Source: Myxococcota bacterium (lineage in GTDB: Bacteria; Myxococcota_A; UBA9160; SZUA-336). Taken from it: a DNA stretch of 64,000 nucleotides. The translations under genes were made by a program, and so were the position numbers. A model generated the notes under the pieces. It was not told the DNA's origin. It saw nothing but the letters and a program-made list of their open reading frames with translations, and did not search any database. The stretch lies in contig JBBDXF010000019.1 of NCBI GenBank assembly GCA_040902485.1, positions 6,076 to 70,075 on the forward strand. The letters run 5' to 3'. Positions 20,390 through 56,479 of the stretch are shown here, piece by piece. The stretch's first letter is position 1, and each line of letters opens with the position of its first letter.

Positions 20390-20869
20390 GTGCGAGAGTA
20401 CGAGTTCGTCTACGTGATCCAGCCCGACGCAACGCCCGAGCGCGAGGCCGAGATCCACCAGCGCATCGATCAGGTCGTGAACGATCAGAAGGGCCGCTTT
20501 CTGCTCCGCGACGACTGGGGCAAGCGCCGGCTCGCCTACGAGATCAAGAAGTTCCAGAAAGGCCACTACTTCCAGGTGAACTTCCTGGGCTGCGGCAAGG
20601 AGATCGGCGAGATCGAGCGCCTGATGCGGATCGACGCCGACATCCTCCGCTACCTGTCGGTGCTGGCCAACGAAGAGGTCGACGACGTCGAGACGCGCGT
20701 GGTCGAGGCGGCCAAACAGGCCGCGGAGCAGGCGCAGCGGCGCGCCGAGCGCGAGGCCGAGCGCGCGGCGCGCGAGGAGCGCGAGAAGGAGCGGGAGCGC
20801 GGCTTGCCCGTAGGCGAAGACGACGACGAGGAGCCCCGCTTCCGAGCCGACGACGAGGACGAGGAGTAG
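20390..20869 (+). CDS. rpsF: 30S ribosomal protein S6, with a long acidic C-terminal tail
   Basis: (M)REYEFVYVIQPD...WGKRRLAYEIKK...GHYF. GTG start with AGGAGAGG SD. The tail ends ...RADDEDEE. Confidence 0.93.
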   Translation: MREYEFVYVIQPDATPEREAEIHQRIDQVVNDQKGRFLLRDDWGKRRLAYEIKKFQKGHYFQVNFLGCGKEIGEIERLMRIDADILRYLSVLANEEVDDVETRVVEAAKQAAEQAQRRAEREAERAAREEREKERERGLPVGEDDDEEPRFRADDEDEE

Positions 20870-42170: not shown

Positions 42171-45100
42171 CTACACGCCGGGCGAGGCGCTCGCGCGGGC
42201 CGAGGCGCGGAGCTGTCTCGCACGCCACGCGACGTAGAGCGCCGGAATCGCGAACAGGGTCATGACGAGGAGCGAGAACAGGCCGCCCTGCATCGGCGAT
42301 GCAATGCGCTTGGCCACGTCGGCGCCCGTGCCCTCGGCCAGCATGATCGGAACGAGACCCAGGATGTTCATGCCGACGGCCATCACGATCGCGCGGATCC
42401 GGGGCACCGCGGCCTCGAGCGCGAGCGCGACGAGATCGTCCGCGCTGCGCAGCCGGCCCTCGGCGAGCCAGCGCGCGTGGGTCTCGTCGAGGTAGACGAC
42501 CATCACGGAAGCGGTCTCTGCCGCGACGCCGACCAGCGCGATCATGCCGACGTAGGCGGCGATGGAGGTGTTGTACTCGAGCGCCGCCATCAGCCAGATC
42601 GAACCGACCAGCGAGAGCGGCACGGCGGTCATCACCAGCAGCGCCTGCACCGCGCCGCCGAAGTTCAGGGTGAGGATCGCGAAGACGATCGCGAGCGTGA
42701 GCGGAACGACGAGAAGCAGGCGGCTGCGAATGCGCTCCAGGAACTCGTACTGGCCCGTCCAGCCGAGGCGGTAGCCGGGCGGGAGCTCGAGTGACTCGGC
42801 GACCGCGGCCTTCGCGTCGCGCACGTAGCCGCCGATGTCTCGCCCCGCGATGTCGACGTAGACCCAGCCAACGAGCGACCCCGCCTCCGACTTGATCATC
42901 GGCGGCCCCAGGGTCGCCTCGAGCTTGCCGAGCTGCGCGAGCGGAATCTGCGCGCCGTCCATCGTGGGCACGAGCACGCGGCGCAGGCTGTCGATGTCGT
43001 CGCGGAGCTCGCGCGGGTAGCGCACGTTGATCGTGTAGCGCTCGCGACCCTCGATCGTGCGATCGATGTCCATGCCGCCGATGGCCGTCTCGACGACCTC
43101 GAGCACGTCCATCACGCGCAGGCCGTAGCGCGCGATCTCGTCGCGGTCGGGAGTGAAGTCGAGATAGAAGCCGCCGAGCTCGCGCTCGGCGTAGACGCTG
43201 CGCGTTCCGGGCACGCCGCGCAGCGTCGCCTCGAGCTGCTCGCCGATCCGCGCGATCCGAGCCAGGTCCGGGCCGAACACCTTGATTCCGATCGGCGTGC
43301 GGATCCCGGTCGTCAGCATGTCGACGCGCGCCTTCACGGGCATGGTCCAGGCCGACTGCATGCCCGGTGTCTCCACGGCCGCCGCGAGCTCCTCGACGAG
43401 CCGCTCTGGCGTCATCCCGCTGCGCCACTCCGCGCGCGGGCGCAGCGCGATCACCGTCTCGATCATCGAGAGCGGCGCCGGGTCGGTCGGCGTCTCGGCC
43501 CTGCCGGCCTTGCCGAAGACCGAGCGCACCTCGGGGAAGCTCTTCAGCACGCGGTCCTGGATCGACACGACGCGCTTCGCTTCTTCGATCGAGAGCCCGG
43601 GCACGCTCACCGGCATGAACAGCAGGCTGCCCTCGTCGAGGGGCGGCATGAACTCCGATCCGACCCGCGCGAAGATCGGAACGGTCGCCAGAACCGCGGC
43701 CGCCGAGGCGGCCAGGAACACGCGTCGGTGTCGCAGCACGACGCCGAGCGCCGGGCGGTAGAGCGCCATCAGCGCTCGGTTCACGGGGTTCGCTTCCTCG
43801 GGCGGGATGCGCCCGCGCACGAACAGGATCATCAGCACGGGTACGAGCGTGATCGAAAGCACCGAGGCGAAGGCCATCGAGAACGTCTTCGTGTACGCGA
43901 GCGGCTTGAACAGCCGCCCCTCCTGCGCCTCGAGCACGAGGATCGGAAGGAACGACACGGTGAGCACGAGCAGCGATCCGAACATCGGAGCGCCGAGGCG
44001 CTTCGCGGAGTCGAGGATCACGCGCGCGCGGTCGGCCCCCGGCCCCGCCTCTGCGAGGCGGCGGTGGGCGTCCTCGATCATCAGGACGGCGGCGTCGACG
44101 ATGTCGCCGATCGCGATGATCACGCCGGCGAGCGACATGATGTTCGTCGTGAGGCCGAGCAGGTACATCGGCACGAACGAGAGCAGCACGGCCACGGGGA
44201 GCATCAGCAGCGCCACGAGCGACGAGCGCAGGTGCAGGAGGAAGACGGCGATCACCAGCGCGACGATCGCGATCTCCTCGAGCAGCGCGTCGCGCAGCGT
44301 CGCGACCGAGTCGCGGATCAAGGGCGCGCGGTCGTAGGTCACGACCAGCTCCACGCCCGGCGGAAAGCTCGGGCGCAGCTCCTCGATGCGAGCCTTCACC
44401 CGCTCGACCACGCGCAGCGCGTTCTCGCCGAAGCGCATCACGACGATGCCGCCCGCGACCTCGCCCTCGCCATCGAGCTCCGCGAAGCCCCGACGGATGT
44501 TGCCGCCGATCCGAATGCTCGCGACGTCCGACAGGCGCACGGGCGTACCCGAACCGTCGGACCCGACGACGACGCGTTCGAGATCCGCGACGCCGGTGAT
44601 GTAGCCCCGGCCGCGCACCGCGTACTCGTGCTCCGAGAGCTCGATCACGCGGCCGCCCACGTCGAGGTTCGACATGCGGATGGCGTCGATCAGCTGGCGA
44701 AGCGGCAGCCGATAGGCGAGGAGCCGCATGGGATCGATCGTGACCTGGTACTGCTTCTCGTAGCCGCCCAGGGACGCGACCTCGGCGACTCCCGGCACGG
44801 CGGCGAGCGCGTAGCGCAGCGTCCAGTCCTGGTACGAGCGGAGCTCGGAGAGATCGCTCTGCCCGGTCCGGTCCACGAGCGCGTACTCGAAGACCCAGCC
44901 GACGCCCGTCGCGTCCGGACCGATCTGAGGCGTGACGCCGGGCGGAAGGCTACCCTGGAGCTTCGACAGGTATTCGAGCGCGCGGCTGCGCGCCCAGTAG
45001 ATGTCGGTCCCGTCTTCGAAGATCACGTAGACGAACGACATCCCGAACATCGTGAAGCCGCGCACCGCCTTCACCTTCGGCGCGCCCAGGAACACGGTCG

Positions 45101-45308
45101 TGATCGGGTAGGTGATCTGGTCCTCGACCAGCGTGGGACTCCGGCCCATCCACTCCGTGAACACGATCACCTGCGTGTCGGAGAGATCGGGCAGCGCGTC
45201 GAGCGGCGTGCGCTCGAGCGCCCACGCACCCGCGACCGCGCCGAGCAGCGACGCGGCGAGCACGAGCGAACGATTGCGCCCGCACCAGTCGATCAGGCGC
45301 GCGATCAC
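42171..45308 (-). CDS. cusA: CusA/CzcA-family heavy-metal efflux RND permease (CusA-like)
   Basis: The GTG at 45308 gives (V)IARLIDW...ALPDLSDTQVIVFTEWMGRSP...VYVIFEDGTDIYWARSRALEYL...GPDATGVGWVFEYALVD, closely recalling E. coli CusA. GTGA overlap with cusB. Confidence 0.92.
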   Translation of the reverse strand: MIARLIDWCGRNRSLVLAASLLGAVAGAWALERTPLDALPDLSDTQVIVFTEWMGRSPTLVEDQITYPITTVFLGAPKVKAVRGFTMFGMSFVYVIFEDGTDIYWARSRALEYLSKLQGSLPPGVTPQIGPDATGVGWVFEYALVDRTGQSDLSELRSYQDWTLRYALAAVPGVAEVASLGGYEKQYQVTIDPMRLLAYRLPLRQLIDAIRMSNLDVGGRVIELSEHEYAVRGRGYITGVADLERVVVGSDGSGTPVRLSDVASIRIGGNIRRGFAELDGEGEVAGGIVVMRFGENALRVVERVKARIEELRPSFPPGVELVVTYDRAPLIRDSVATLRDALLEEIAIVALVIAVFLLHLRSSLVALLMLPVAVLLSFVPMYLLGLTTNIMSLAGVIIAIGDIVDAAVLMIEDAHRRLAEAGPGADRARVILDSAKRLGAPMFGSLLVLTVSFLPILVLEAQEGRLFKPLAYTKTFSMAFASVLSITLVPVLMILFVRGRIPPEEANPVNRALMALYRPALGVVLRHRRVFLAASAAAVLATVPIFARVGSEFMPPLDEGSLLFMPVSVPGLSIEEAKRVVSIQDRVLKSFPEVRSVFGKAGRAETPTDPAPLSMIETVIALRPRAEWRSGMTPERLVEELAAAVETPGMQSAWTMPVKARVDMLTTGIRTPIGIKVFGPDLARIARIGEQLEATLRGVPGTRSVYAERELGGFYLDFTPDRDEIARYGLRVMDVLEVVETAIGGMDIDRTIEGRERYTINVRYPRELRDDIDSLRRVLVPTMDGAQIPLAQLGKLEATLGPPMIKSEAGSLVGWVYVDIAGRDIGGYVRDAKAAVAESLELPPGYRLGWTGQYEFLERIRSRLLLVVPLTLAIVFAILTLNFGGAVQALLVMTAVPLSLVGSIWLMAALEYNTSIAAYVGMIALVGVAAETASVMVVYLDETHARWLAEGRLRSADDLVALALEAAVPRIRAIVMAVGMNILGLVPIMLAEGTGADVAKRIASPMQGGLFSLLVMTLFAIPALYVAWRARQLRASARASASPGV

Positions 45309-46465
45309 GGGTGCGCCCCGTGCTCGCGTTCGCCCCCCGCGGCCGCACCGCGCAGGCGACTCTCGGAGTCGAGCAGGAACTGCGCGCGAGTCACGACCAG
45401 GTCGCCCTCGCGGAGTCCCTCGAGCACCTGGACGCGGCCACGCGCGCGCGCGCCGAGCCGCACCGCGCGCGCCTCGAAGCGGCCCTCGCCGACGCGAACG
45501 AAGACGAGCTGCCGCGCGCCGGTGTCCAGCACGGCGTCCGCTGGCACGGTCAGCTCGGGCTCGAGCGGAATCTCGAGCTTCACGGTCCCGTAGGCGCCGG
45601 GGCGCAGACGCCGCTCCTCGTTGGGCAGCTCGAGCCGGACCTTCACCGTGCGCGTGTCCGGGTCGACGGTCGGATCGATGAACGCGACGCTGGCCGCGAA
45701 CTCGAGCGGCGAGCCTTCCGCTCCCACCGGGCTGAAGCGCGCCGTCTGACCGACTTGCACGTACGGCACCTCGTACTCGTAGAGATCCGCGAGCACCCAG
45801 ACGCGCGACAGATCCGCGATGGTGTAGAGGTCCATCGGCGGCTCCACGTACATCCCCGGCAGCACCATCTTCTCGATCACCGTGCCGGAGCGCGGCGCGC
45901 GCACGCTGAGCGTGCGCAGCACGCGGCCATCCTTCTCGATCCGCGCGATCGCGTCGTCGGCGATGTCGTAGAAGCGCAGCTTCGTGCGCGCCGTCTCGAG
46001 CAACGCCTCGGCGGACGCGCGCTCGCCCGCGCGCCCCGAGCCCGAGGCCGCGGTCGCGCGCGTATGCGCCACGATCAGCTCTTGCTGTGACGTGACCAGA
46101 TCGGGGCTGTAGACGGAGAACAGCGGATCCCCGCGCTTCACCTCCTGGCCGACGTACGAGACGAAGAACTCCTGGATCCAGCCCTCCCACTTCACGTGCA
46201 CGTGCGACTCGCGTGTCTCGTCCGTTCGCACCACGCCGACCGTCCGCACGTCGCGTGTGAGCGGCTCGCGCCGCGCGGGCTCGATTCGGACGCCGAAGAG
46301 CTGCACGCGTTCGGCGTCGAGCTCGACGGGTGCGTAGCCCTCGGGCGAGTCACCGGTCTGCACGTGCTCGCGCGCCGCAGGCTGCGCAGTCGTCTCGCGA
46401 TCGCGACAGGACGCGAGCGTGAGCGCTGCGAGCGCGACGACGAGCGCGGCACGCGTCGCCTTCAC
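45305..46465 (-). CDS. cusB: Efflux RND periplasmic adaptor (membrane fusion protein)
   Basis: The GTG at 46465 gives (V)KATRAALVVALAALTLASC (lipobox). Beta-barrel and lipoyl-like MFP pattern: LFSVYSPDL...VRAPRSGTVIEK. GTGA overlaps on both sides. Confidence 0.85.
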   Translation of the reverse strand: MKATRAALVVALAALTLASCRDRETTAQPAAREHVQTGDSPEGYAPVELDAERVQLFGVRIEPARREPLTRDVRTVGVVRTDETRESHVHVKWEGWIQEFFVSYVGQEVKRGDPLFSVYSPDLVTSQQELIVAHTRATAASGSGRAGERASAEALLETARTKLRFYDIADDAIARIEKDGRVLRTLSVRAPRSGTVIEKMVLPGMYVEPPMDLYTIADLSRVWVLADLYEYEVPYVQVGQTARFSPVGAEGSPLEFAASVAFIDPTVDPDTRTVKVRLELPNEERRLRPGAYGTVKLEIPLEPELTVPADAVLDTGARQLVFVRVGEGRFEARAVRLGARARGRVQVLEGLREGDLVVTRAQFLLDSESRLRGAAAGGEREHGAHP

Positions 46466-47775
46466 GGAGTCCCTCCTGCCAGCGATTCGAAGTCGAGCGC
46501 GCAGACCGCCTCGAGCGACGCCACCGCCGTCGCTCGCGTTGCTCGGAGCTCGGCGGCCGCGAGTTCCAGCTCGAGCAGGCTTCGCTGGGCGTCCAGGAGC
46601 TCGAGGAAGGCGGCACCGCCTGTCGCGTACGTCATCTCCGTTGTGGTCACGACGTCGCGCGCGCGCGGCAGCAGCACGTCGCGGAACAGCGCGAGCTGCC
46701 GGTCGCTGTCGCGCGCGAGGAACAGCTCGAGCGCGATGCGAGCGCCGAGCTCGTCCTTGCGCGCGCGCAAGGCTGCTTCCGCGGAGCGCTGCGCCGCGCG
46801 AGACTCGGCGATCCCCGCGCGAATCCGCGCGAACTGCAGCGGCACGTTGATCATCCCCATCAGCGATCGATCCATCGAGCCGGGCACGTCGAGACCGATC
46901 GACAGATCGGGCACGTAGGCGAGCCGCGCGAGCTCCACCGCGTTCTTGCGGCCGCGCGCCTCGGCGGCCAGCGCAGCGAGCTCCGGATTGCGCTCCGCCG
47001 CCAGCGCGAGGATGGTCGCGTCGTCGGGCAGATGCGGCTCGCGCGCCGCAGGCGCCGGGCGCAGCGGCGCGTCGGCCGGCCGGGAGAGCAGCGCGTTCTG
47101 CGCCGCCAACGCGGAGCCGCGTCGCGCCCGCAAGGTCTCTAGCTCGTTCTCCGCGCTCGCCACCTCGAGCTCGGCCTTGCTCGCATCGGACTGCGGCGCA
47201 CGGCCGACCGCGACGAGCTCGAGAGTCACCGACGCGAACTGCTGCAAGAGCGCGAGATTCTCTTCGCCGATCTCGGTGCCGCGATCGACGACCCACAGCT
47301 CGTACCAGGCGGCCACCACCTCGGCTTGGAGCGAGAACTTCCGATCCTCGAGGCGGTGCCGGGCGGCGACCGCGTCCGCCAGCGCCACCTCGCCGGCGCG
47401 CGTCAGCTTTGCCGGGTAGGGAATCATCTGCGACCCGCCGAGCGTGGTCCGGTCCCAGCGGCCCATGCGCTCGGACGCGAAGAGATACTCGAACGAAAGT
47501 GACGGATCGGGAAGCGAGCTCTCCTGGGGAACGCGCTCGAGCGCGGCGGCCCATTCGAAGTAGCTCATCTCGAGCTCCGCGTTGGAGCGGAAGGCGTACG
47601 CCAGCACGTCGTCGAGCGGCGCACCCTCCGGGAGCGCCGGTAGCTCCCGTGTTTCGTGCCGGGTCGAGAACACCTCGCCCGCGCGCTCGACGCGCGCGCG
47701 CTCGTCCTTCGTCTCGGCGGGCGCGAATACCGCGCACCCGCAGAGGGCGGTGAGAAGGACCAGCTCTCGCCTCAC
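46462..47775 (-). CDS. cusC: TolC-family outer-membrane efflux factor (lipoprotein)
   Basis: MRRELVLLTALCGC lipobox and duplicated OEP helical repeats. It is the first gene of the cusCBA-ordered operon. Confidence 0.85.
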   Translation of the reverse strand: MRRELVLLTALCGCAVFAPAETKDERARVERAGEVFSTRHETRELPALPEGAPLDDVLAYAFRSNAELEMSYFEWAAALERVPQESSLPDPSLSFEYLFASERMGRWDRTTLGGSQMIPYPAKLTRAGEVALADAVAARHRLEDRKFSLQAEVVAAWYELWVVDRGTEIGEENLALLQQFASVTLELVAVGRAPQSDASKAELEVASAENELETLRARRGSALAAQNALLSRPADAPLRPAPAAREPHLPDDATILALAAERNPELAALAAEARGRKNAVELARLAYVPDLSIGLDVPGSMDRSLMGMINVPLQFARIRAGIAESRAAQRSAEAALRARKDELGARIALELFLARDSDRQLALFRDVLLPRARDVVTTTEMTYATGGAAFLELLDAQRSLLELELAAAELRATRATAVASLEAVCALDFESLAGGTP

Positions 47776-47916: not shown

Positions 47917-48255
47917 ATGATGAAGCGCACCGCCACGGCCCTGCTCGCTTGCGCCCTGTTCGTTCAACCCGGCCTCGCAGCTGCGGCCGAGTCCCACTCG
48001 CTCGAACAGCTCGTGATCGAGATGGCCGACACGCCCGCGGACCACGCCGCGCTCGCCAAGCACTTCCAGGCCAAGGCCGCCGACGCGCGAGCCGCGGCGG
48101 CCGAGCACGAGGCCATGGCGAAGTCCTATGCCGCGGGCAAGCTCGCCGAGCGCGTCCAGATGCAGGACCACTGCAAGAAGCTCTCGGTGCAGTACAACGC
48201 GCTGGCCGCCCAGTACGACGATCTCGCGAAGCTCGAGGAGGCCGCGTCGAAGTAG
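47917..48255 (+). CDS. Small secreted all-helical hypothetical protein (112 aa)
   Basis: An internal ATG at 47917 has a strong SD (AAGGAG, 47905-47910). Signal peptide MMKRTATALLACALFVQPGLAAAA. The mature part is A/E/K/H/M-rich and helix-prone. Divergent from cusC. Confidence 0.6.
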   Translation: MMKRTATALLACALFVQPGLAAAAESHSLEQLVIEMADTPADHAALAKHFQAKAADARAAAAEHEAMAKSYAAGKLAERVQMQDHCKKLSVQYNALAAQYDDLAKLEEAASK

Positions 48256-48269
48256 CCGCAGCGTCCGGC

Positions 48270-49568
48270 TCAGGGCACCTGGGACTTGAAGAAGCCGGAG
48301 AGATCCTGACCGGACACCTGCTGCGCGAGTTCCTGGACGCGCGCGGTGGTCACGGTTCCGCCCTCGCGCACCAAGAGCCGCGTGATGTCGTCGATGCCGC
48401 GCGTCTGGTCGGTGGCGTCGCGGATGCGCTGGTCGAGCGCGCGCAGCACCGTGACCGCGCGTGCGGTGCCCGCGCCCGAGACGGACTTGCTGCGCAGGTG
48501 CGCGGCGTCCGCGCCGCGCTTGGCGAGCATCTCGTAGGCGTGCTGGAGCCGTTCGGGTGACATCGTTCCGGAGCGGCCCAGGATCTCGAGCGAGTAGTAC
48601 TCGGCCAGGCCCTCGATCGCCCAGTCGCCGTCGGAGCCGGGCGAGAGCCGCAGCGCGGTGTGCACGACCTCGTGCAGGATGGGGCTCGTGCCGTCCTCGG
48701 TGATCAGCGGCCGGTGCGCGTGCAGGAACAGCGAGCCCGGACCCGAGAGCCCGCCGCGCCACATCGGGTCGCCGGCCGAGACGACCAGCAGCCGATCGGG
48801 CAGCGACTGGAACGCCTCGCGCAGCGACGGCAGCGTCCAGCGCAAGAGCGCGAGCACGTCCTGACGGTGCACGCCCGCGCCGCGCGGACCGACGATCGCG
48901 ACGCGCACGCCGGCGACCTCTTCGCGAATCGCGCCGAGCACGCCCGCGATCATCCAGCCCGTGGGCCGATCGAAGCGGCGCCGCGGGTGCTCGACGCGGT
49001 ACAGCCCGCCGCGCAGCTTCGCGTACGGCGTCGCCATGCTCCAGCCCTCGGGCAGACGCATGCGCAGGCGCGTGCGGGAACGCGCGCCGTCCTCGCTCAG
49101 CACGCGCGCCTGCGGCACCAGATCCTCGCCGCGGTAGATCGCCCAGGTCTTCGCGCAGCGCGCGTCGTAGCGGCGCGCGTCGCGCAGGTGGTCGATCCGG
49201 AACACGTAGTGGAGCTGGCCGCCCGTGCGCGGCGGGATCCAGGTCACGTGCGCGCCCTCGACGACCACGCTGCCGTCGCCGCGGAAGAGCAGGTGGCGCT
49301 GCGGATCGATGCGGAAGCGCAGCCGCTTCACGTTCTGCGCGCCGCGCCCGAGCTCGAGCGTGACGTGCGCCGCGCGCTCGGTCGGCACGATCCGCGCGGT
49401 GACGGTGAAGTCGTAGATCCGCGGCTTGTGCACGGCCGGCGGGGTCTCGGCGGGGCTCTGCAGCGGGGGCTGCGCGGGCGGCTTCGCCGGCGCCTGCGCC
49501 CGGGCGGTCGCGACACCGACGAGCGACGCGGCGCAGACCAGCACCAGTGCGGGCGCGAGCCGCCTCAC
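48270..49568 (-). CDS. Secreted putative zinc metallopeptidase (HExxH...E, MA-clan-like)
   Basis: The GTG at 49568 forms a GTGA overlap with the ATP-grasp stop. Signal-like N-terminus (V)RRLAPALVLVCAASLVGVATARAQA. Motif ILHEVVHTALRLSPGSDGDWAIEGLAEYY. Confidence 0.62.
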   Translation of the reverse strand: MRRLAPALVLVCAASLVGVATARAQAPAKPPAQPPLQSPAETPPAVHKPRIYDFTVTARIVPTERAAHVTLELGRGAQNVKRLRFRIDPQRHLLFRGDGSVVVEGAHVTWIPPRTGGQLHYVFRIDHLRDARRYDARCAKTWAIYRGEDLVPQARVLSEDGARSRTRLRMRLPEGWSMATPYAKLRGGLYRVEHPRRRFDRPTGWMIAGVLGAIREEVAGVRVAIVGPRGAGVHRQDVLALLRWTLPSLREAFQSLPDRLLVVSAGDPMWRGGLSGPGSLFLHAHRPLITEDGTSPILHEVVHTALRLSPGSDGDWAIEGLAEYYSLEILGRSGTMSPERLQHAYEMLAKRGADAAHLRSKSVSGAGTARAVTVLRALDQRIRDATDQTRGIDDITRLLVREGGTVTTARVQELAQQVSGQDLSGFFKSQVP

Positions 49569-50527
49569 GCGAGCGCTCCCTCGCGCGCGAGCCGCGCGAT
49601 CTCGCCGCCGAGCGCGATCCGCTCGGGCCATTCCAGCCCCGGCCGCACGCGTTCGTCCACCGCCTGGAGCCGCGGCACCAGCCCCGCGCGGTTCGCGACC
49701 TGGATCGCCAGACCCGGCCGCGCGTTCAGCTCCAGGACCAGCGGGCCGTGGTGCGCGTCGATCACGACGTCCGCGCCGACGTAGCCGAGCTCGGTCTGAT
49801 CGGTGGCGCGCACCGCGATCTCGAGCGCGCGCGCGAACTCGGGGATCGGCCGGCCCACCACCGCTTCCTGCGTATCCGGGTGCACGGGCACCGGCTTGCC
49901 GTCGAGCACGGCGTGGTTGGTGCAGCCGGTATCCAGCTCGATGCCCGCGCCCACCGCGCCCTGGTGCAGGTTCGCGCGCCCGCGCGAGCGCCGCGTGGGC
50001 AGGCGCGTCATCGACATCACCGGCACCCCGCGGTAGACGATCACGCGCACGTCGGGCACGCCCTCGGTCGTGATCGCGGCCAGCTCGGGATGGACCTCGA
50101 GGCGCTCCTCGGCGAACGCGACGTCGGGCTGTCCGCCCAGCGCGTACGCGCCCGAGATGATGCTTGCCGAGTGGTAGAACAGCGCGCGCCGGTCGATCCA
50201 GCGCCCGCCCGGCCGCCGGAACCAGTCGCCGTCGCGCTCGAACACGACCAGGATCCCGTTGCCCATCGCGCCGTGCGCGGGCTTGATCACGAACGACGAG
50301 TACGAGTCGAGCTCCTGCAGCATGCGGCGCACCTCGGAATGCACGCGCGCGACCGCCAGCACCGGCGCGGTCGGGATGCCCGCTTCGCGCAGCAGGCGCT
50401 TGGTCTCGAGCTTGTCGTCCACGCGCGGATAGAGACGGCGCGGGTTCCAGTACAGTGTGTACACCGCATTGCGTCGATTCATGCCGAGCACCCCGGCTGC
50501 GCGCAGTCGGCCGACGAACGACGTCAC
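49565..50527 (-). CDS. ATP-grasp amidoligase, alpha-L-glutamate-ligase-like (RimK-related)
   Basis: The GTG at 50527 forms a GTGA overlap with the upstream stop. GVLGMNRRNAVYTLYWNPRRLYPRVDDKLETKRLL...FVIKPAHGAMGNGI...VRVIVYRGVPVMSMTRLPT..SRGRANLHQGAVG...GADVVID...GPLVLELNARPGL. Confidence 0.85.
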   Translation of the reverse strand: MTSFVGRLRAAGVLGMNRRNAVYTLYWNPRRLYPRVDDKLETKRLLREAGIPTAPVLAVARVHSEVRRMLQELDSYSSFVIKPAHGAMGNGILVVFERDGDWFRRPGGRWIDRRALFYHSASIISGAYALGGQPDVAFAEERLEVHPELAAITTEGVPDVRVIVYRGVPVMSMTRLPTRRSRGRANLHQGAVGAGIELDTGCTNHAVLDGKPVPVHPDTQEAVVGRPIPEFARALEIAVRATDQTELGYVGADVVIDAHHGPLVLELNARPGLAIQVANRAGLVPRLQAVDERVRPGLEWPERIALGGEIARLAREGALA

Positions 50528-52104
50528 AGGCCGGCCTCGTCCTGCGGCCGCGTGAACGAGCGGAAGCGCCACAGCTCCGCGAGCCGGTAGCCAGTGTAGC
50601 CGCCGATCGCGACCAACAGGCCCATGGTCGAGATCACGAGCTCGGGGAAGCCGAACATCAGGTGGTCGAGCGCTTCGAGGCGGAACGCGGGGTAGATGCA
50701 CATCGCGATCAGCGTCGACGAGGCGAGCCTTCGCACCGCCGCGCCCAGACCCTCTTCGGCAGAGGTGATCGAGAAGCGCTCGATCAGCATGGTCAGGATC
50801 ACGACCGGGAACAGCACGCTCGCGAACAGGTCCTTCACCTCGTAGGTGCGGCCGAACAGCGACTGCGCGGTGATCGCGAGCACGACCACGCACAGCAGCA
50901 CGCCGAGCCGCGGCACCAACAAGAGCTGCAGCCGGTCGAGGAAGAGCCGCGACACGATGCCGAGCGCGATCACCGAGCCGACCAGCGAGAGCCCGAGCGA
51001 GAGCGAGAGCTCGCGCAGCGCGAGCGCGATCAAGAGCGGCATGAACGTGCCGAACGTGCGCAGGCCCACCAGGTTCCGGAAGATCGAGATGATCAGCGCG
51101 CCGACCGGCAGGATCAGCAAGATGCGCAGCGCGGCCTGCGAGCCGACCGGCAGCCGGTACAGCGACACGGCGGCGAGCAGCGGATTCGAAGGCACCATGA
51201 ACGACGCGACTTCGCGCGCGTCGAGTGACTCGCGCAGCACGCGGTAGCGCGACGAGATCGCGTCGAGCCCGGTCTCCTCGATCAGCGTGGCGCCGCCGTA
51301 CTTGAGCAGCAGCAGATCGGGAGGCCGCGCGCCGAAGAAGCCGAGCGTGGGCGAGAGCGGCAGCCAGCCGCCGCCGACCCAGCCCTCGACCCAGACGGTC
51401 TCTCGCGCCTCCTTCTCGGCCCGCAGCCGCAAGCCCGCCGCGAGCCGCGCGGGAAATCCCGCCGCGCGCAGCAGCGCCACCAGCAGACGCGATTTGCCGA
51501 GCGGGCTGCCCTCGCCGGACGAGAACGTGAGCAGCGCGTCGTCGCTGCCGGTCGCGATCGTCAGGACCTCGTCGGTCGCGTAGCCGAGCAGCGTGCGCAT
51601 CTGCCCGAGCGGATCGTTGGGCGCGGGCGGCGCGATGCTCGAGACCAGCTCGCGGATCTCCGGGGCCTCCGACGGGAAGCGCGACGTCGACCGGCTGTAG
51701 GTCTCGACGATGTCTTTCGGCGGCTTCTGTCCGAGCTCGCTCGGCAGCTCGGGAGGCGTGTCGACGAGCTGCACGCGGAAGCCGTGCGAGATGCTGTGCA
51801 CGCCGTCGAAGCGCCCGCTCCATACGCCCGTGCGCTGGCCGCGCCCGGTGCGGATCGTGAAGACCAGCCGGTCCGACGTCTGCCGCTCGTCGAAGACCTC
51901 CTGGCCCGCGTCTGCGCTCGGCAGCGCGGCGCGCACGCTGCCGCGCTGGCCCGAGCCGCGCGCCTCGACCTCGAGCTCCACGCGCCACAGATTCTCGACG
52001 TCGGACGGCAGCACCGGAAGCTGCAGCACGAGTGTCTTCCAGGCGAAGATCGACAGACCCAGCGCCACGAGCACGCTGCCCGTAACGGCGGCCGCGCGGT
52101 TCAA
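50524..52104 (-). CDS. Transglutaminase-like (predicted inactive) periplasmic domain fused to a 7-TM module
   Basis: N-terminal TM anchor, then a ~300-aa domain with a TGase-core-like segment (GEGSPLGKSRLLVALLRAAGFPARL...WVEGWVGGGWLPLSP) that contains no Cys at all. About 7 hydrophobic helices follow (ILLILPVGALIISIF ... LLVAIGGYTGY). Confidence 0.8.
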   Translation of the reverse strand: MNRAAAVTGSVLVALGLSIFAWKTLVLQLPVLPSDVENLWRVELEVEARGSGQRGSVRAALPSADAGQEVFDERQTSDRLVFTIRTGRGQRTGVWSGRFDGVHSISHGFRVQLVDTPPELPSELGQKPPKDIVETYSRSTSRFPSEAPEIRELVSSIAPPAPNDPLGQMRTLLGYATDEVLTIATGSDDALLTFSSGEGSPLGKSRLLVALLRAAGFPARLAAGLRLRAEKEARETVWVEGWVGGGWLPLSPTLGFFGARPPDLLLLKYGGATLIEETGLDAISSRYRVLRESLDAREVASFMVPSNPLLAAVSLYRLPVGSQAALRILLILPVGALIISIFRNLVGLRTFGTFMPLLIALALRELSLSLGLSLVGSVIALGIVSRLFLDRLQLLLVPRLGVLLCVVVLAITAQSLFGRTYEVKDLFASVLFPVVILTMLIERFSITSAEEGLGAAVRRLASSTLIAMCIYPAFRLEALDHLMFGFPELVISTMGLLVAIGGYTGYRLAELWRFRSFTRPQDEAGL

Positions 52105-52119
52105 GCGGAGACTCCCGTG

Positions 52120-53235
52120 CTAATCGGGCCGCTCCTCGAGCTCGGACCGCCCGGGCTCGGCGCCCTCGTCGACGCTCGGCAGTGCGGCGGCGGGCACCAC
52201 CGCGCCGTCCTCCATCGGCTCGTCGGTGGCGATGTGGAAGGCCGCGAAGCCGGGCATCACCAGCTGATCGAGCGCGACACCGATCACGCGACCCTCGTGC
52301 GTGGCGCGGATGGTCGACTTCTCGTTCGAGATCGGGTCGAAGATCGTGCCGAGCACCTGGTTGGCCTTGACCGTGTCGCCGAGCTTCGCGCGCGCCTTCA
52401 GGATTCCGCCGTCGTCCGCGCGGATCCAACGCGCGCGGTAGTAGAGCTGGGGCTCGGGTGCGCCGCTGGTCTTCACGAGCCGCATGCCGAGCTGGGCGAG
52501 CATGTGCTCGACGCCGAGCACGCCGCGCTCGATCTCGTCGGACTGGAAGCGCATCGGCTCGCCGGCCTCGTAGGTGATCGCGGGAATGCCGGCCTCGCTC
52601 GCGGCTCGCCGCAGCGTGCCCGCGCGGCCCTCGTTGTGGATCGCGATCTCGCTGCCGAACGCGCGCGCGAGCCGCAGCACTTCGGGGCGGCGCAGGTCGC
52701 CGCGTACCTGCGGGAGATTCGTGCGGTGAAACGAGCCCGAGTGCACGTCGACCAGCGCGTCGCACTGGCGCACCACCTTCTCGAACACCGAGTAGGCGAG
52801 CCGCGACGCGCTGCTGCCGCGCGGCCGTCCCGGAAAGAAGCGGTTCAGGTCGCGGCGATCCGGCATGTAGCGCGAGCTGCGCCGGAACGCGGCCAGGTTC
52901 ACGATCGGAATGCCGACCAGCGTCCCCGCAAGCGTGTCGGGCTTGGCGCGGTCGAGCGACCGCCGCACCACCTCGATGCCGTTCAGCTCGTCGCCGTGGA
53001 TGCCGGCCGTGAGGCACAGCACCGGTCCGACCTGCGCGCCCGCGACCACGATCACCGGGGTCGACGCGTCCTCGCCGACGAAGGTCTCCGAGACGGGCAA
53101 CGCCAGGCGCCGCTGGTCGCCCGGCGCGATCGGCTGGCCGAGCAGCTCGAGCGCCTGCGCGCGCGCCTGCGCGGCGCCGAGCGCCAGGCTCCCGAGCGCG
53201 AGAGCAGCGAAGCGTCGGACGGTGTTGGGCCCCAT
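52120..53235 (-). CDS. Succinylglutamate desuccinylase/aspartoacylase (AstE/AspA, M14-like Zn hydrolase) family protein with a predicted signal peptide
   Basis: An internal ATG 53235 gives MGPNTVRRFAALALGSLALGAAQARAQA. Zn and catalytic motifs AGIHGDELNG, DLNRFFPG and VDVHSG. C-terminal hybrid-barrel-like GGILKARAKLGDTVKANQVLG. Confidence 0.85.
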   Translation of the reverse strand: MGPNTVRRFAALALGSLALGAAQARAQALELLGQPIAPGDQRRLALPVSETFVGEDASTPVIVVAGAQVGPVLCLTAGIHGDELNGIEVVRRSLDRAKPDTLAGTLVGIPIVNLAAFRRSSRYMPDRRDLNRFFPGRPRGSSASRLAYSVFEKVVRQCDALVDVHSGSFHRTNLPQVRGDLRRPEVLRLARAFGSEIAIHNEGRAGTLRRAASEAGIPAITYEAGEPMRFQSDEIERGVLGVEHMLAQLGMRLVKTSGAPEPQLYYRARWIRADDGGILKARAKLGDTVKANQVLGTIFDPISNEKSTIRATHEGRVIGVALDQLVMPGFAAFHIATDEPMEDGAVVPAAALPSVDEGAEPGRSELEERPD

Positions 53236-53293
53236 TTCGCGAGGCGGATTCCAGCCCACTTTCGCGGCCGCCGCCAGATCCGTGCGCGTCCCC

Positions 53294-53905
53294 TCAGGGC
53301 TTGAGCAGGCCGATGATTCCCGAGCGCAGCGCGGCGCTACCCACCTGGACACCCGTGTCCTCGAGTGACTTCGCGCCGATGCCGAGCGAGAGCAGCAGCA
53401 CCGCCATCTGGCGCGGGTCGAGGTCGCGCCGGACCTTGCCGGCTTCCTGCGCCCGCTTGACCAGGTTCCCCACGCGCGTGGCGGCGTCGTCGAAGATCTC
53501 CGTGAAGCGGTGCTTCAGCTTCTCGGAGCGCGCGATCGACTCGAAGACCCGGTGGGTCGCGATCGCGAACGTGCCCACGATCGGCCAGTCCTTCTTCGCG
53601 AGCACGGCGGTGAAGCGGCCGACGGCGGCGTCGAGATCCGTGTCGTCATCGGTGCCCGCGATCACGTCGACGAGGGACGAGAGCGTCCAGTCGGTGACCG
53701 CGACCAGGAAGTCGTCGCGGTCCTTGAAGTGCACGTAGAACGCGCCGCGTGTGAAGCCGGCCCGCGCGCAGATCGCATCGAGGCTCGGCGTGTCGAGCCC
53801 GTGCTCGATCAGCTCCAGCAGCCCCGCCTTGAGCAGCGCCTGGCGCGTGAACTCCTTCGACTCGGCACGGCTGCGACGCTGCTCGGTCGTCGATCCCTGA
53901 TCCAT
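53294..53905 (-). CDS. TetR/AcrR-family transcriptional regulator
   Basis: FTRQALLKAGLELIEHGLDTPSLDAICARAGFTRGAFYVHFKDRDDF. It lies 58 nt upstream of, and co-directional with, the AstE-like gene. Confidence 0.88.
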   Translation of the reverse strand: MDQGSTTEQRRSRAESKEFTRQALLKAGLLELIEHGLDTPSLDAICARAGFTRGAFYVHFKDRDDFLVAVTDWTLSSLVDVIAGTDDDTDLDAAVGRFTAVLAKKDWPIVGTFAIATHRVFESIARSEKLKHRFTEIFDDAATRVGNLVKRAQEAGKVRRDLDPRQMAVLLLSLGIGAKSLEDTGVQVGSAALRSGIIGLLKP

Positions 53906-53933
53906 GACTCGCGCTCCACTTCTGCCGGATACG

Positions 53934-53956
53934 GAATCGATCTTTTAACACGATTC
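53934..53956. promoter_or_regulatory. Inverted repeat GAATCG-N11-CGATTC spanning an AT-rich patch upstream of the TetR gene; candidate TetR operator or promoter
   Basis: Read from the sequence, 29-51 nt upstream of the TetR start codon (minus strand). The spacer ATCTTTTAACA is the lowest-GC patch locally. Confidence 0.3.
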
Positions 53957-53998
53957 AAAGCTGCGGGAAAGTCGATCTTCCACAGGTTTCCGCGTCGT

Positions 53999-56479
53999 TC
54001 ATCCTCCATCCGCGCGAAGCGGAAACGGCAGCTCCGACGTGCCGGGGGCGAGCTTCAGGTTCATGTCGCGCTGCGGGTACGGGATCTCGATGCCGGCCTC
54101 GCGCAGCGCGGCGTTCACGGCGATGCCGAGCTCGCTCCGCACGCGTACGCCGATCTCGAAGCGGGTCCAGACACGCAGCGAGAAATTGAGCGCGCTGTCG
54201 CCGAAGCCGGTGAAGAACGCGACCGGCTCGGGGATCGCCAGCACCTCGGCGTGCGCGCGGCCGACCCCGACCAGCAGCGCGATCGCCTTCGCCGGATCCG
54301 TGTCGTATCCCAGGCCCACGTCCATGTCGATGCGGCGCTGGCGGTCGGAGAAGGTCCAGTTCACCACCCGGTCCGAGATCAAGCTCGCGTTGGGCACGAT
54401 CACGTCCGCACCCTCGAACGTGCGAATCGTGCTCGAGCGGATGCCGATGCGCTGCACCTCGCCGGAGAGCGGCCCGACCTCGATCGTGTCGCCGGTCTGC
54501 ACCGGCCGCTCGAAAAGCAGGATCAGGCCCGACACGAAGTTGTTCACCACGTTCTGCAGGCCGAAGCCGATGCCGACGCCGAACGCGCCCGCGAGCAGCG
54601 AGAAGCGCGACATGTCGATGCCGGCGGCGCCGATCGCGAGCGTGAAGCCGATCAGCAGGATCGCGTAGTGAATGCCCGTGGAGATCGCAGCCGGCACGCC
54701 GCGCGGCAGCGACACGCGCGGCACCACGTCCTCTTCGAGCACGAAGCGCAGGAAGCGCGAGAGCGTGAACGCGATCCAGATCGTGAGGAAGAAGGCGAGC
54801 ACCTCGCCGAGCGACACCGAGAGCGTGCCGAGCTCGAGCTTCGCGGTGACGACCGTGCGGAGCGCCGAGAACACCTCGTCGTCGATGCGGAAGAAGCGCA
54901 GGCTCGCGACGATCCAGCTGGCGGCGGCGGTCCAGCCCAGGAACGTCGCGATCCTGCGCCGCAAGAGCGCGCTGTGATCGCGCACCAGACGAAGCTGCCG
55001 CATCCGGGAGCTGCGCAAGAGCGCGGTCAGCGCGCCGCCGGCGATGCGCGTGAGCGCGTACGCCGCCACCGCGCTGTACGCGGAAGAGAGCGTGCCGCGC
55101 ACCAGCAGCCGCGAGACCGAGAGCATGCCGATCACGTTCGCGAGCGCCGCGACCGCGAGCAGGCCGAGCGCGACGCGCGCGATCGGGAGCACCGCGCCGC
55201 CGAAGCGACCGACCTCGACGAAGTGCACCGCGTTCTTGGGCCGGAGCATGTACGCGAGCAGGGCCACTCCGCCGAGCGCCTCGATCAGCAGCCGATAGCG
55301 CTCGACGATCGAGACGCCGCCGACCAGCGAGCGCAACGTGCCGAACACGAACAGCAGCGCGAGCCCGAGGATCCCCACGCGCAAGCCGCCGTACAGCTCG
55401 ATCGGCAGCAGGCGCAACATCGGCACGAGCAGGATCACCGCTTCGAGATCCGTGGCCACGGTCGTCGCGCGCGAGGATGCGAACTGCGTGGAGAGCATCG
55501 AGACGACGATCGCCGACGACACAGGGCGGGTGAAGATGCGGGCCGTCGCCGCGAGCGTCGGGTCTTCGAGCGCCCATTGCGAGACCCGCGCGCGCGCGAT
55601 CAGCAGCCCGAGCAGCACGAACAGGAACACGACCCCCTGCCACACGAACCGGTTCACGTCCAGGCGGATGAACTCGCCGAGCTCGCCGATGGCGTCGGAG
55701 AGGTGCGTGAGCACCTGTTCGCGGAGCGGCGTCGGGTCGGCGGTTCGCGTGTACGCGTCGGGACTCCAGAGCGGCGGCTCGTCGCGAGCGAAGAGCCGCG
55801 ACTGGAGCTCCCTGCGCAGGGTCGAGACGCGTTCCAGCACGCCCGTCACCACCAGCTCCTGCTGCGCGACGTCGTTCTGCAGGGCGAGGATGTGCGTGCG
55901 GCGCCGCTTGACCTGCTTCTGCGCCTCGTTCAGCGCGGCCAGCGTCTCGCTCACGCGCTCGCGTGTCGACTGCGGTAGCCCGGCGGCCGCCGCCGACTCG
56001 CGCGTCGCCTCCCACTCGTTTTCGAAGCGCTGCAGGCCGTCGATCTCGGCCTCGATCGCGACCGCGCGGCGGGTGAGCGCCAGCCGCCAGGCGGCGAGCG
56101 CCTCGGAGCGCGAGCGCCACTCACTCGAGAGATCCGAGAGCGCCTCGATCGAGACCGCGCCTTCGAGCAGCTCGTTGGCCCGGGTCGAGCGCTCCGTCAG
56201 CTTGCTCGCGAGCTCGGGCAGCTTGGCCTCGATCTCGAGCTCGGTCGCGTCCGGAGCCGAGCGCGACTCGATGTGCTTCAGCTCGGCCTTGAGCTCCTCC
56301 GAACGCCCGACGATCTCCGGTGCGGGCACCGGGACCGGCGCCTCGGGCGCGGCGGGTGCGACCGGCGCGGGGGGCGCGGCCGCCGGAGCCGGTGCGGGCG
56401 CCTCCTGGGCGACGACCTGCACGGCCGCGAGCGAGAGCGCGACCGCGAACAGGCACTCGGGAAGGCGCATGCGGCGCAT
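53999..56479 (-). CDS. Large mechanosensitive channel, MscS family (MscK/MscM-like)
   Basis: Signal peptide, P/A-rich linker, long coiled periplasmic domain and about 11 TM segments. MscS core GFGLQNVVNNFVSGLILLFERPVQTGDTIEV...GEVQRIGIRSSTIRTFEGADVIVPN. Confidence 0.9.
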   Translation of the reverse strand: MRRMRLPECLFAVALSLAAVQVVAQEAPAPAPAAAPPAPVAPAAPEAPVPVPAPEIVGRSEELKAELKHIESRSAPDATELEIEAKLPELASKLTERSTRANELLEGAVSIEALSDLSSEWRSRSEALAAWRLALTRRAVAIEAEIDGLQRFENEWEATRESAAAAGLPQSTRERVSETLAALNEAQKQVKRRRTHILALQNDVAQQELVVTGVLERVSTLRRELQSRLFARDEPPLWSPDAYTRTADPTPLREQVLTHLSDAIGELGEFIRLDVNRFVWQGVVFLFVLLGLLIARARVSQWALEDPTLAATARIFTRPVSSAIVVSMLSTQFASSRATTVATDLEAVILLVPMLRLLPIELYGGLRVGILGLALLFVFGTLRSLVGGVSIVERYRLLIEALGGVALLAYMLRPKNAVHFVEVGRFGGAVLPIARVALGLLAVAALANVIGMLSVSRLLVRGTLSSAYSAVAAYALTRIAGGALTALLRSSRMRQLRLVRDHSALLRRRIATFLGWTAAASWIVASLRFFRIDDEVFSALRTVVTAKLELGTLSVSLGEVLAFFLTIWIAFTLSRFLRFVLEEDVVPRVSLPRGVPAAISTGIHYAILLIGFTLAIGAAGIDMSRFSLLAGAFGVGIGFGLQNVVNNFVSGLILLFERPVQTGDTIEVGPLSGEVQRIGIRSSTIRTFEGADVIVPNASLISDRVVNWTFSDRQRRIDMDVGLGYDTDPAKAIALLVGVGRAHAEVLAIPEPVAFFTGFGDSALNFSLRVWTRFEIGVRVRSELGIAVNAALREAGIEIPYPQRDMNLKLAPGTSELPFPLRADGG

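Follow-up and report, generated by a model that had tools for sequence, protein, structure and literature searches.

The Rlo system of Pseudomonas aeruginosa is encoded by rloA-rloB-rloC. The products are a secreted retropepsin-like peptidase (RloA), a protein in which a transglutaminase domain without activity is joined to seven transmembrane helices (7TM; RloB), and a cytoplasmic ATP-grasp protein (RloC) (Lormand et al., mBio 2025, PMC12239564). RloA cleaves polyglutamate in vitro (PMC12239564). A triple rloA mutant does not grow in hypo-osmotic medium and shows antibiotic, biofilm, and cell-shape defects as well as a beta-lactam phenotype (PMC12239564). When rloB or rloC is deleted, the osmotic defect is suppressed completely and the others are suppressed in part (PMC12239564). 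In P. aeruginosa, the system influences survival of osmotic stress, tolerance of beta-lactams, biofilm formation, and cell shape. Lormand et al. describe the physiological substrate, as well as what RloB and RloC do, as unknown (PMC12239564). In the view of the same authors, the substrate is not a genome-encoded poly-Glu protein (PMC12239564). In Shewanella, disruption of an RloB homologue in a transposon study leads to membrane hyper-vesiculation (PMC12096838). Here we describe an operon in a 64,000-nt stretch of contig JBBDXF010000019.1 (the window) from an uncultured Myxococcota bacterium, which appears from its sequences to be a Myxococcota-type variant of the Rlo envelope system.

In this operon, an RloB-like membrane protein and an RloC-like ATP-grasp ligase are encoded together with two zinc hydrolases that carry signal-peptide-like N-termini, one of the M61/M1 type and one of the AstE/AspA type. 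The best explanation of the whole, in which our confidence is evenly balanced, is that the product of the RloC-like ligase would be handled by RloB and degraded by the zinc hydrolases in the periplasm. The RloB-RloC pair, its exported hydrolase, and the link with osmotic stress are already known. The coupled M61-like peptidase, the exported AstE-like enzyme, the retropepsin-less cluster, and the TetR and MscK-like genes are undescribed in the literature that we reached, with a mention in comparative genomics of 2009 being possible. The original prediction for this locus held that such gene sets had no determined product, substrate, or phenotype. The statement on phenotype did not stand, given the rloABC phenotypes and their epistasis (PMC12239564), whereas that on the product did. 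Our literature search found no later paper on the product of the Rlo ligase and none that links RimK with succinylglutamate desuccinylase.

The operon and its five proteins

Direct reading of the minus strand between 54100 and 48200 gave the operon genes; G+C is about 70% across the whole window. Five co-directional minus-strand genes between 53905 and 48270, with GTGA overlaps and a 15-nt gap, had been noted, and all of these features are present in the sequence:

53294 to 53905, minus strand: TetR-family regulator, 203 aa; ATG at 53905, stop at 53294; 93-nt gap after the MscK-like gene
52120 to 53235, minus strand: predicted exported AstE/AspA-type zinc amidohydrolase, 371 aa; ATG at 53235, stop at 52120; 58-nt gap after the TetR gene
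50524 to 52104, minus strand: RloB-like 7TM protein, 526 aa; TTG at 52104, stop at 50524; 15-nt gap (52119-52105), GGGAG upstream
50524 to 50527, minus strand: GTGA start/stop overlap of the RloB-like and RloC-like genes, read from the sequence
49565 to 50527, minus strand: RloC-like ATP-grasp ligase; GTG at 50527, stop at 49565; overlaps the RloB-like stop
49565 to 49568, minus strand: GTGA start/stop overlap of the RloC-like and M61-like genes, read from the sequence
48270 to 49568, minus strand: predicted exported M61/M1-like gluzincin metallopeptidase with an HExxH motif, 432 aa, assigned by fold and motif; GTG at 49568, stop at 48270; GGGAG 8 nt upstream

As expected in G+C-rich DNA, a mechanical list of open reading frames (ORFs) contains longer ORFs for three of the five genes. 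The shorter starts were chosen because homologues support them: the N-termini of homologues agree with the chosen starts of the HExxH and 7TM proteins, and the GTG start of the ligase is supported by a TIGR02291 alignment that begins at residue 4. With intergenic gaps of 93, 58, 15, and 14 nt, a precursor-peptide ORF would hardly fit. A short substrate ORF with an acidic end, suggested earlier as something to look for in the operon and its flanks, is not present: neither strand of 48150-54100 has an ORF of 12-90 aa whose C-terminus is acidic. This agrees with the view of the Pseudomonas authors on the substrate. A scan of 48000-54200 for consensus promoters and terminators gave no match.

Pfam and NCBIfam confirm the family of four of the five proteins, the HExxH protein being the exception. 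The families that had been named without database searches were all matched, namely TetR_N, AstE_AspA_cat, Transglut_i_TM with 7TM_transglut, and ATPgrasp_ST/TIGR02291. The proposed topology, with a cytoplasmic ligase, a membrane-bound pseudo-transglutaminase, and exported hydrolases, agrees with the sequences and the structural model.

In the RloB-like protein, an N-terminal anchor helix is followed by an inactive transglutaminase-like domain in the periplasm and, at the C-terminus, by the 7TM_transglut helix bundle (PF14402, 9.8e-63; PF14400, 3.6e-9; PF01841, 2.6e-10). Its sole NCBIfam match is NF052267, "osmotic stress tolerance membrane protein RloB", whose cutoff of 900 bits is not reached (227 bits). 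It is 28-29% identical end to end to Legionella and Aeromonas RloB. The topology of the AlphaFold (AF2) model (pLDDT 80) agrees with the RloB architecture. An N-terminal helix at residues 3-26 is followed by a beta-sandwich and a transglutaminase-like domain at about 39-292, and then by the helical bundle. The periplasmic part matches the transglutaminase-like structure 3isr (template modelling score, TM, 0.74).

The extracytoplasmic domain had been noted to lack cysteine, and it does. The only cysteines of the protein are residues 405 and 469, both in the membrane part, and the periplasmic part is Cys-free in 33 of 34 RloB-like homologues. At positions 205, 237, and 251, which we take to correspond to the Cys-His-Asp triad from the known Transglut_core motif, the 34 homologues have A/T/S/V, V/A/T, and S, respectively. 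Scaffold residues G203, R213, R220, W238, E240, and W247 are conserved. Judged from these residues, the triad has been lost and the domain is most probably not an active thiol transglutaminase.

The loss of the triad together with conservation of the scaffold is as expected of a pseudo-enzyme that binds a ligand. In an alternative that we regard as unlikely, the periplasmic domain of RloB would sense an envelope ligand, such as a peptide or a peptidoglycan fragment, and the membrane domain would switch the ligase on or off. The ligase would then act on a target in the cytoplasm, much as ribosomal protein S6 is modified by RimK, and the exported hydrolases would make or destroy the periplasmic signal. 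A pseudomurein endoisopeptidase is among the transglutaminase-fold matches of the RloB-like model, and the membrane bundle has no structural match in the PDB and resembles no known transporter; both favor sensing. Control of RimK activity by partner proteins (PMC12239564) does so as well. However, a secreted, polyglutamate-cleaving RloA whose loss is suppressed by loss of RloC (PMC12239564) is easier to understand with a periplasmic product, and the window has no gene for a cytoplasmic acceptor, just as no short ORF with an acidic tail lies in or around the operon.

The RloC-like ligase scores 329.4 bits against TIGR02291, the alpha-L-glutamate ligase-like family (cutoff 314.2), with residues 4-294 of the GTG-start protein aligned, and matches PF14397 (ATPgrasp_ST) at 2.9e-70. 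It is 45% identical to Legionella RloC and 43% identical to Aeromonas RloC. It is not RimK proper, as it scores 49.9 against TIGR00768 (cutoff 143.4) and 22.9 against PRK10446 (cutoff 331), with no Rimk_N match. Among solved structures, those of RimK come closest, with weak matches.

The Pfam name of PF14397 is "sugar-transfer associated ATP-grasp". This name favors another view, to us distinctly unlikely, in which the ligase would attach an amino acid, perhaps glutamate, to an envelope precursor linked to a lipid or a sugar, for example a polysaccharide or a molecule related to peptidoglycan. RloB would flip or anchor the precursor, and its decoration would be remodeled by the M61-like enzyme and by the AstE-like one, acting as an amidohydrolase on N-acyl amino acids. 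The cell-shape and beta-lactam phenotypes of the Pseudomonas mutants (PMC12239564) and the over-production of membrane vesicles by Shewanella RloB mutants (PMC12096838) are in line with such a role in the envelope. So is the preference of AstE/AspA enzymes for small N-acylated amino acids rather than proteins. The surroundings of the cluster speak against it: no glycosyltransferase or polysaccharide gene is conserved beside the cluster in the related loci that we mapped (see below), and the glycosyltransferase genes found in some relatives (L002, L087, L088) lie upstream on the opposite strand, outside the coupled block. Genes for RimBK, glutamate dehydrogenase, CdaA, CorA, and MscS-type channels recur there instead.

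Both hydrolases had been predicted to start with signal-peptide-like sequences, and inspection by eye agrees. The two N-termini, MGPNTVRRFAALALGSLALGAAQARA/QA and MRRLAPALVLVCAASLVGVATARA/QA, each have a hydrophobic core that is preceded by a basic n-region and followed by an AxA site. Comparable N-termini are seen in many AstE-like orthologues, and a signal peptide is seen by eye in all 38 aligned HExxH homologues.

The AstE-like protein scores 148.5 bits against AstE_AspA_cat (PF24827; cutoff 25; 2.2e-43). The AstE/AspA family cleaves amide bonds of N-acyl-Glu, N-acyl-Asp, and N-acyl-diaminobutyrate and is related to M14 at the clan level only. The closest solved relatives are 3cdx, from structural genomics, and the DoeB structures 6twm and 6twl. 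Residues H80, E83, R132, H165, and E223, as well as the DLNR motif, are invariant across 32 orthologues. From knowledge of the family, we take H80, E83, and H165 to be the zinc ligands and E223 to be the catalytic Glu. The best-scoring named NCBIfam models are those of DoeB, aspartoacylase, and AstE, and the equivalog cutoffs are not reached (TIGR03242, 24.8 against 305.65; NF002601, 28.6 against 180; TIGR02994, 70.2 against 402.7). AstE, aspartoacylase, and DoeB share with the window protein the AstE_AspA domain, the HxxE...H zinc ligands, the catalytic Glu, and DLNR. They are cytoplasmic catabolic enzymes, whereas the window protein has a signal-peptide-like N-terminus. The genes of AstE and DoeB lie in the context of arginine or ectoine catabolism, and that of the window protein in an Rlo cluster.

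The HExxH protein consists of a signal peptide, a Pro/Ala-rich linker, a beta-sandwich domain, and the catalytic domain. It has no Pfam or NCBIfam match at E<=0.01, and against Pfam Peptidase_M61 it scores 16.3 bits, under the cutoff of 22. When 38 homologues were scanned singly, 32 gave sub-threshold Peptidase_M61 matches, with a best E-value of 2e-4. A profile of the family retrieved only noise (E>0.3) from PDB chains. Since this sequence search was uninformative, a fold search was used instead. The AF2 model (pLDDT 89) retrieves M61 peptidases at the top of the Foldseek results (7xyo, 1.1e-18; 4fgm, 3.4e-18, TMq 0.66; 8j9c, 5e-16), followed by M1 aminopeptidases. The earlier assignment to the MA clan holds in that the predicted fold is that of a gluzincin. 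H299, E300, H303, W316, E319, G320, and Y325 are invariant in an alignment of 38 homologues, so that HExxH (299-303) is followed by W316-x-x-E319-G-x-A-x-x-Y325, the gluzincin third-ligand motif.

The two-domain fold, the HExxH...E zinc site, and the EGxAxxY-type motif are common to the window protein and to M61 (7xyo, 4fgm, 8j9c) and M1 peptidases. The window protein differs from them in its sub-threshold Pfam score, in the lack of a detected PDZ domain, in the sequence GGLSG at what is presumably, from sequence spacing, the counterpart of the M1 GxMEN motif, and in its operon coupling to an ATP-grasp ligase. A C-terminal PDZ domain is typical of many M61 proteins. No PDZ match was found in the HExxH protein or its homologues, and the chain ends, in helices, about 130 residues past HExxH. 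The mature protein has a computed pI of about 10.5 and many invariant Arg residues. This would suit an acidic substrate and is similar to RloA, whose substrate channel is reported to be positively charged (PMC12239564), a weak indication at 70% G+C, where Arg richness is common. More than 2,300 homologues exist in databases, nearly all unnamed, and at least 577 stretches encoding a relative turned up when one genome per species was scanned with the profile. These M61-like proteins are a large family without a Pfam model above threshold.

Conservation of the cluster in related genomes

We mapped the six proteins of the window onto 84 fetched loci (labelled L001 and so on) and tallied 83 after the removal of one duplicate. 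The HExxH gene directly follows RloC in 56 of the 83, in the order RloB-RloC-HExxH and at 43-93% identity. It is solitary in 19, and the flank is too short to decide in 8. The 56 coupled loci are almost all in metagenome-assembled genomes (MAGs) labelled Myxococcota or Deltaproteobacteria, with a few under other labels. Among the 51 loci with complete genes, an overlap of 4 or 1 nt is possible at the RloB/RloC junction in 46 and at the RloC/HExxH junction in 45. Of the coupled loci, 33 have the AstE-like gene, positioned directly upstream of RloB in 32 and downstream of the cluster in the remaining one; 15 lack it, and 8 could not be scored. Look-ups from two AstE-like and three RloB homologues, in addition to the earlier HExxH look-ups, recovered the same cluster, which bears out the expected co-conservation of the four genes. 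The conserved core in this lineage is RloB-RloC-M61-like, and the AstE-like gene is a frequent accessory. Two copies of the cluster occur in the MAG MFD05684.bin.2.192 (contigs L010 and L073), one with the AstE-like gene and one without it.

The HExxH gene and the TetR gene had both been proposed as lineage-specific additions. This stands for TetR, which is found in only 4 of the 56 coupled loci, all in the closest relatives and each with an MscK-like gene upstream. It does not stand for the HExxH gene, which is present in all 56; the optional hydrolase gene is the AstE-like one. As far as gene content can tell, TetR and MscK are probably recent additions to the cluster.

The arrangement is far beyond chance. 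That the genes are mere neighbors, or form an anti-phage or mobile-element module, is extremely improbable. The 19 solitary M61-like homologues, outside the Rlo context, are what such a view would have in its favor, but gene order and overlapping junctions are kept in 56 loci down to 43% identity, and this conservation effectively refutes chance adjacency. PADLOC models match none of the five operon proteins, and a defense system was rejected on this empty scan. No mobile-element genes are present in the flanks examined. The solitary homologues have 40-48% identity and no conserved neighbors (L049, L052, L055-L057, L063, L065, L069-L071, L074-L079, L081, L082, L084). They are labelled Gammaproteobacteria (Lysobacterales and others), Planctomycetota, and Nitrospirales, and their carriers include the cultured Steroidobacter agaridevorans and Microbulbifer yueqingensis.

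A possible fate of the ligase product

Handling of a ligase product by RloB and its degradation by zinc hydrolases can be put in concrete terms. The cytoplasmic RloC-like ligase, which is related to the poly-alpha-L-glutamate ligase RimK, would make or extend a glutamate-rich product. The RloB-like protein, translationally coupled to it in fixed proportion, would export this product or present it at the inner membrane, and its dead transglutaminase-like domain, facing the periplasm, would serve as a binding module. The M61-like peptidase, always present, and the AstE-like amidohydrolase, present in about two thirds of the clusters, would degrade or trim the product in the periplasm, thereby controlling its amount and returning glutamate for reuse. 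As a pair, they would take the part of secreted RloA in Pseudomonas. In the sub-lineage of the window, TetR would control the genes, beside the MscK-like channel as an osmotic release valve. The suppression of rloA loss by loss of rloB or rloC (PMC12239564) fits an RloB/RloC product that needs degradation outside the cytoplasm. Since RloB and RloC are kept in a cluster that lacks the secreted aspartic protease and carries two zinc hydrolases with export signals, an extracytoplasmic hydrolase appears to be required. The presence of two exported zinc hydrolases suggests a product that can be attacked by enzymes of the aminopeptidase type and of the N-acyl-Glu amidohydrolase type.

The genes that recur around the cluster in relatives point to glutamate and osmotic/ion homeostasis, matching the Pseudomonas phenotype. 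In loci without the AstE-like gene, such genes are the neighbors of the core. Glutamate dehydrogenase is encoded directly upstream of the cluster (L027:711-2021), directly downstream (L032:7967-9214), or nearby (L045:8433-9692). A gene for a CdaA-type diadenylate cyclase (DAC and CdaA_N domains; L020:4055-5224) apparently overlaps the RloB start at about 5221, and in seven more loci (L010, L026, L028, L034, L047, L051, L054) a CdaA gene is found at most a few kb from the cluster. A link between cyclic di-AMP signaling and the Rlo-type system is possible. TerC is directly upstream of RloB in three loci (L040, L047, L054), and CorA occurs in six. The RimK of L027 has a C-terminal TrkA_C domain. 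Osmotic and ion homeostasis is well known to involve cyclic di-AMP, MscS-type channels, CorA, and TrkA domains.

RimB-RimK pairs immediately adjoin the core in five loci (L017:3763-9161, L027:5927-7529, L046, L068, and L091:3613-8886), and in L091 RimB-RimK-RloB-RloC-HExxH form one tight co-directional five-gene array. L039 and L041 each have a retropepsin gene directly upstream of RloB, in neither case with room for a signal peptide, so that these proteins look like cytoplasmic RimB-like enzymes rather than RloA. Such neighbors also bear on a RloB that senses an envelope ligand and switches a ligase acting in the cytoplasm. The RimB-like retropepsins next to RloB in L039 and L041 would agree with a cytoplasmic target, as would the S6 of this genome, which ends DDEDEE. 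On the other hand, several relatives have RimB-RimK pairs alongside the cluster, so that S6 modification is already provided for in them. The S6 gene is in the window (20390-20869, plus strand; Pfam Ribosomal_S6) and encodes a long acidic C-terminal extension ending RADDEDEE. Acidic S6 tails of this kind are extended by RimK in other bacteria. No rimK gene is present in the window.

Several points weigh against an exported product that the zinc hydrolases degrade in place of RloA. The RloB-like membrane part has no transporter match, which makes export a guess. The M61-like protein lacks the amine-binding Glu at the GxMEN counterpart and may not be a classical aminopeptidase. A retropepsin gene could be present elsewhere in this genome, and P. 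aeruginosa has three rloA genes, not all of them in the rlo operon (PMC12239564). Because the L039 and L041 retropepsins are RimB-like, the zinc hydrolases are not a slot-for-slot replacement of RloA. The neighbor associations come from related MAGs that are not phylogenetically independent. In favor of such a product, tblastn with two Myxococcota retropepsins and Legionella RloA as queries found no retropepsin within the 64-kb window, and the motif D[TS]GA..[ST] has one match in the six frames, in a frame without a predicted gene; the operon encodes instead the two hydrolases, whose metal and catalytic residues are intact. Placement of the AstE-like gene in an "RloA slot" was also considered and is weakened by the same signal-peptide-less, RimB-like retropepsins.

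A more specific proposal goes further and is, in our estimate, quite unlikely. RloB and RloC would export free alpha-linked oligo- or poly-glutamate to the periplasm as a fixed polyanion or osmotic buffer, and a lineage-specific exported hydrolase would set its level. Its role would parallel that of osmoregulated periplasmic glucans. Gammaproteobacteria would use an endo-acting retropepsin for this purpose, and Myxococcota would use the exo-acting M61-like enzyme at the N-end and the AstE-like enzyme at the C-terminal Glu. If this were true, the hydrolase swap and the links with MscK, CdaA, glutamate dehydrogenase, and RimK would be the signature of a new class of envelope osmoprotectant.

Flanking genes and comparison with known systems

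Upstream of the operon, the co-directional run continues with the MscK-like channel gene (56479..53999), a major facilitator superfamily gene, and a kinase-like gene. Two further features were recorded next to the TetR gene:

53999 to 56479, minus strand: MscK/MscM-like mechanosensitive channel, 826 aa; Pfam MS_channel_2nd 7.8e-23, MS_channel_3rd 2.8e-12
53932 to 53973, minus strand: AT-rich block with GAATCG-N11-CGATTC, candidate promoter/operator in the 93-nt gap upstream of TetR

The MscK-like protein scores 226 bits against NCBIfam MscK, under the cutoff of 991. Its gene is retained upstream of TetR in four loci (L001, L005, L006, L009), and five more loci have MscS-family matches within 8 kb of the cluster. 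It forms part of the context of the operon and is possibly linked to it in function. The TetR-family regulator matches TetR_N (PF00440) at 37.6 bits against a cutoff of 24 (1.9e-9) and TetR_C_13 at 8e-7, and it reaches no NCBIfam equivalog cutoff. The AT-rich block is kept in the window, L005, and L009 and is not found in L001 or L006. Its inverted repeat, spotted by eye, is short, conserved only in part, and a candidate only; the sole result of an inverted-repeat search upstream of TetR was an intragenic palindrome.

For the other genes of the window, a targeted subset of the predicted proteins was scanned with Pfam. The following were observed:

5428 to 7317, plus strand: ShlB/FhaC-like outer-membrane protein (weak match, 1e-6), likely one half of a two-partner secretion pair
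7323 to 14222, plus strand: 2299-aa protein with an N-terminal two-partner secretion (TPS) domain, likely the other half of the pair
42171 to 47775, minus strand: resistance-nodulation-division (RND) efflux set downstream of the operon, with an OEP factor, a CusB/HlyD-type adaptor, and an AcrB/CusA-type pump
47920 to 48255, plus strand: small convergent gene between the RND set and the operon, LIC_10421 family with a sub-cutoff score
58775 to 60319, minus strand: 514-aa call based on composition, probably overlong; the C-terminal part of about 240 aa, which is the part scanned, matches short-chain dehydrogenase models

The cycle of tubulin glutamylation, in which TTLL ATP-grasp glutamylases are opposed by CCP (M14) deglutamylases, is analogous to the operon. 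In both cases, an ATP-grasp glutamylase or its relative stands against a zinc hydrolase of the carboxypeptidase superfamily, although kingdom, compartment, and substrate differ. The RimK-RimB(-RimA) system, which poly-glutamylates ribosomal protein S6, also pairs an ATP-grasp glutamate-ligase relative with a hydrolase that removes what was added. However, it is wholly cytoplasmic and has no membrane partner, whereas the window hydrolases are predicted to be exported, and RimB is an aspartic peptidase, whereas the window hydrolases are zinc enzymes.

The canonical form of Rlo is found outside Pseudomonas as well. An annotated rloABC is located on a plasmid of Legionella adelaidensis (L086), and the same arrangement is present in Aeromonas caviae; a search of a plasmid database with RloB returned canonical rloABC examples only. 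In both Legionella and Aeromonas, rloB and rloC follow a retropepsin gene, and the Legionella pair is also start/stop overlapped. Two genes for C1-family (papain-like) peptidases are convergent to the Legionella rloABC and directly after it (L086:7217-9513). They may represent another lineage-specific hydrolase partner.

The window operon and the Pseudomonas system have in common the RloB architecture, a ligase of TIGR02291, the rloB/rloC overlap, and a hydrolase with an export signal encoded in the operon. The RloB-like protein of the window shares only 28-29% identity with RloB and is far under the NCBIfam RloB cutoff. The link with osmotic stress is known from published phenotypes in Pseudomonas and from neighbor genes only in the window. 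The window adds the TetR and MscK-like genes, and its host is an uncultured member of Myxococcota and not a gammaproteobacterium. Pseudomonas has RloA, a secreted retropepsin of PF05618 with a signal peptide, and the window operon has the M61/M1-like enzyme downstream and the AstE-like enzyme upstream instead. Among the possible products, this variant would favor a small peptide or adduct that contains glutamate, and it provides a handle on what RloC makes and why degradation must happen outside the cell.

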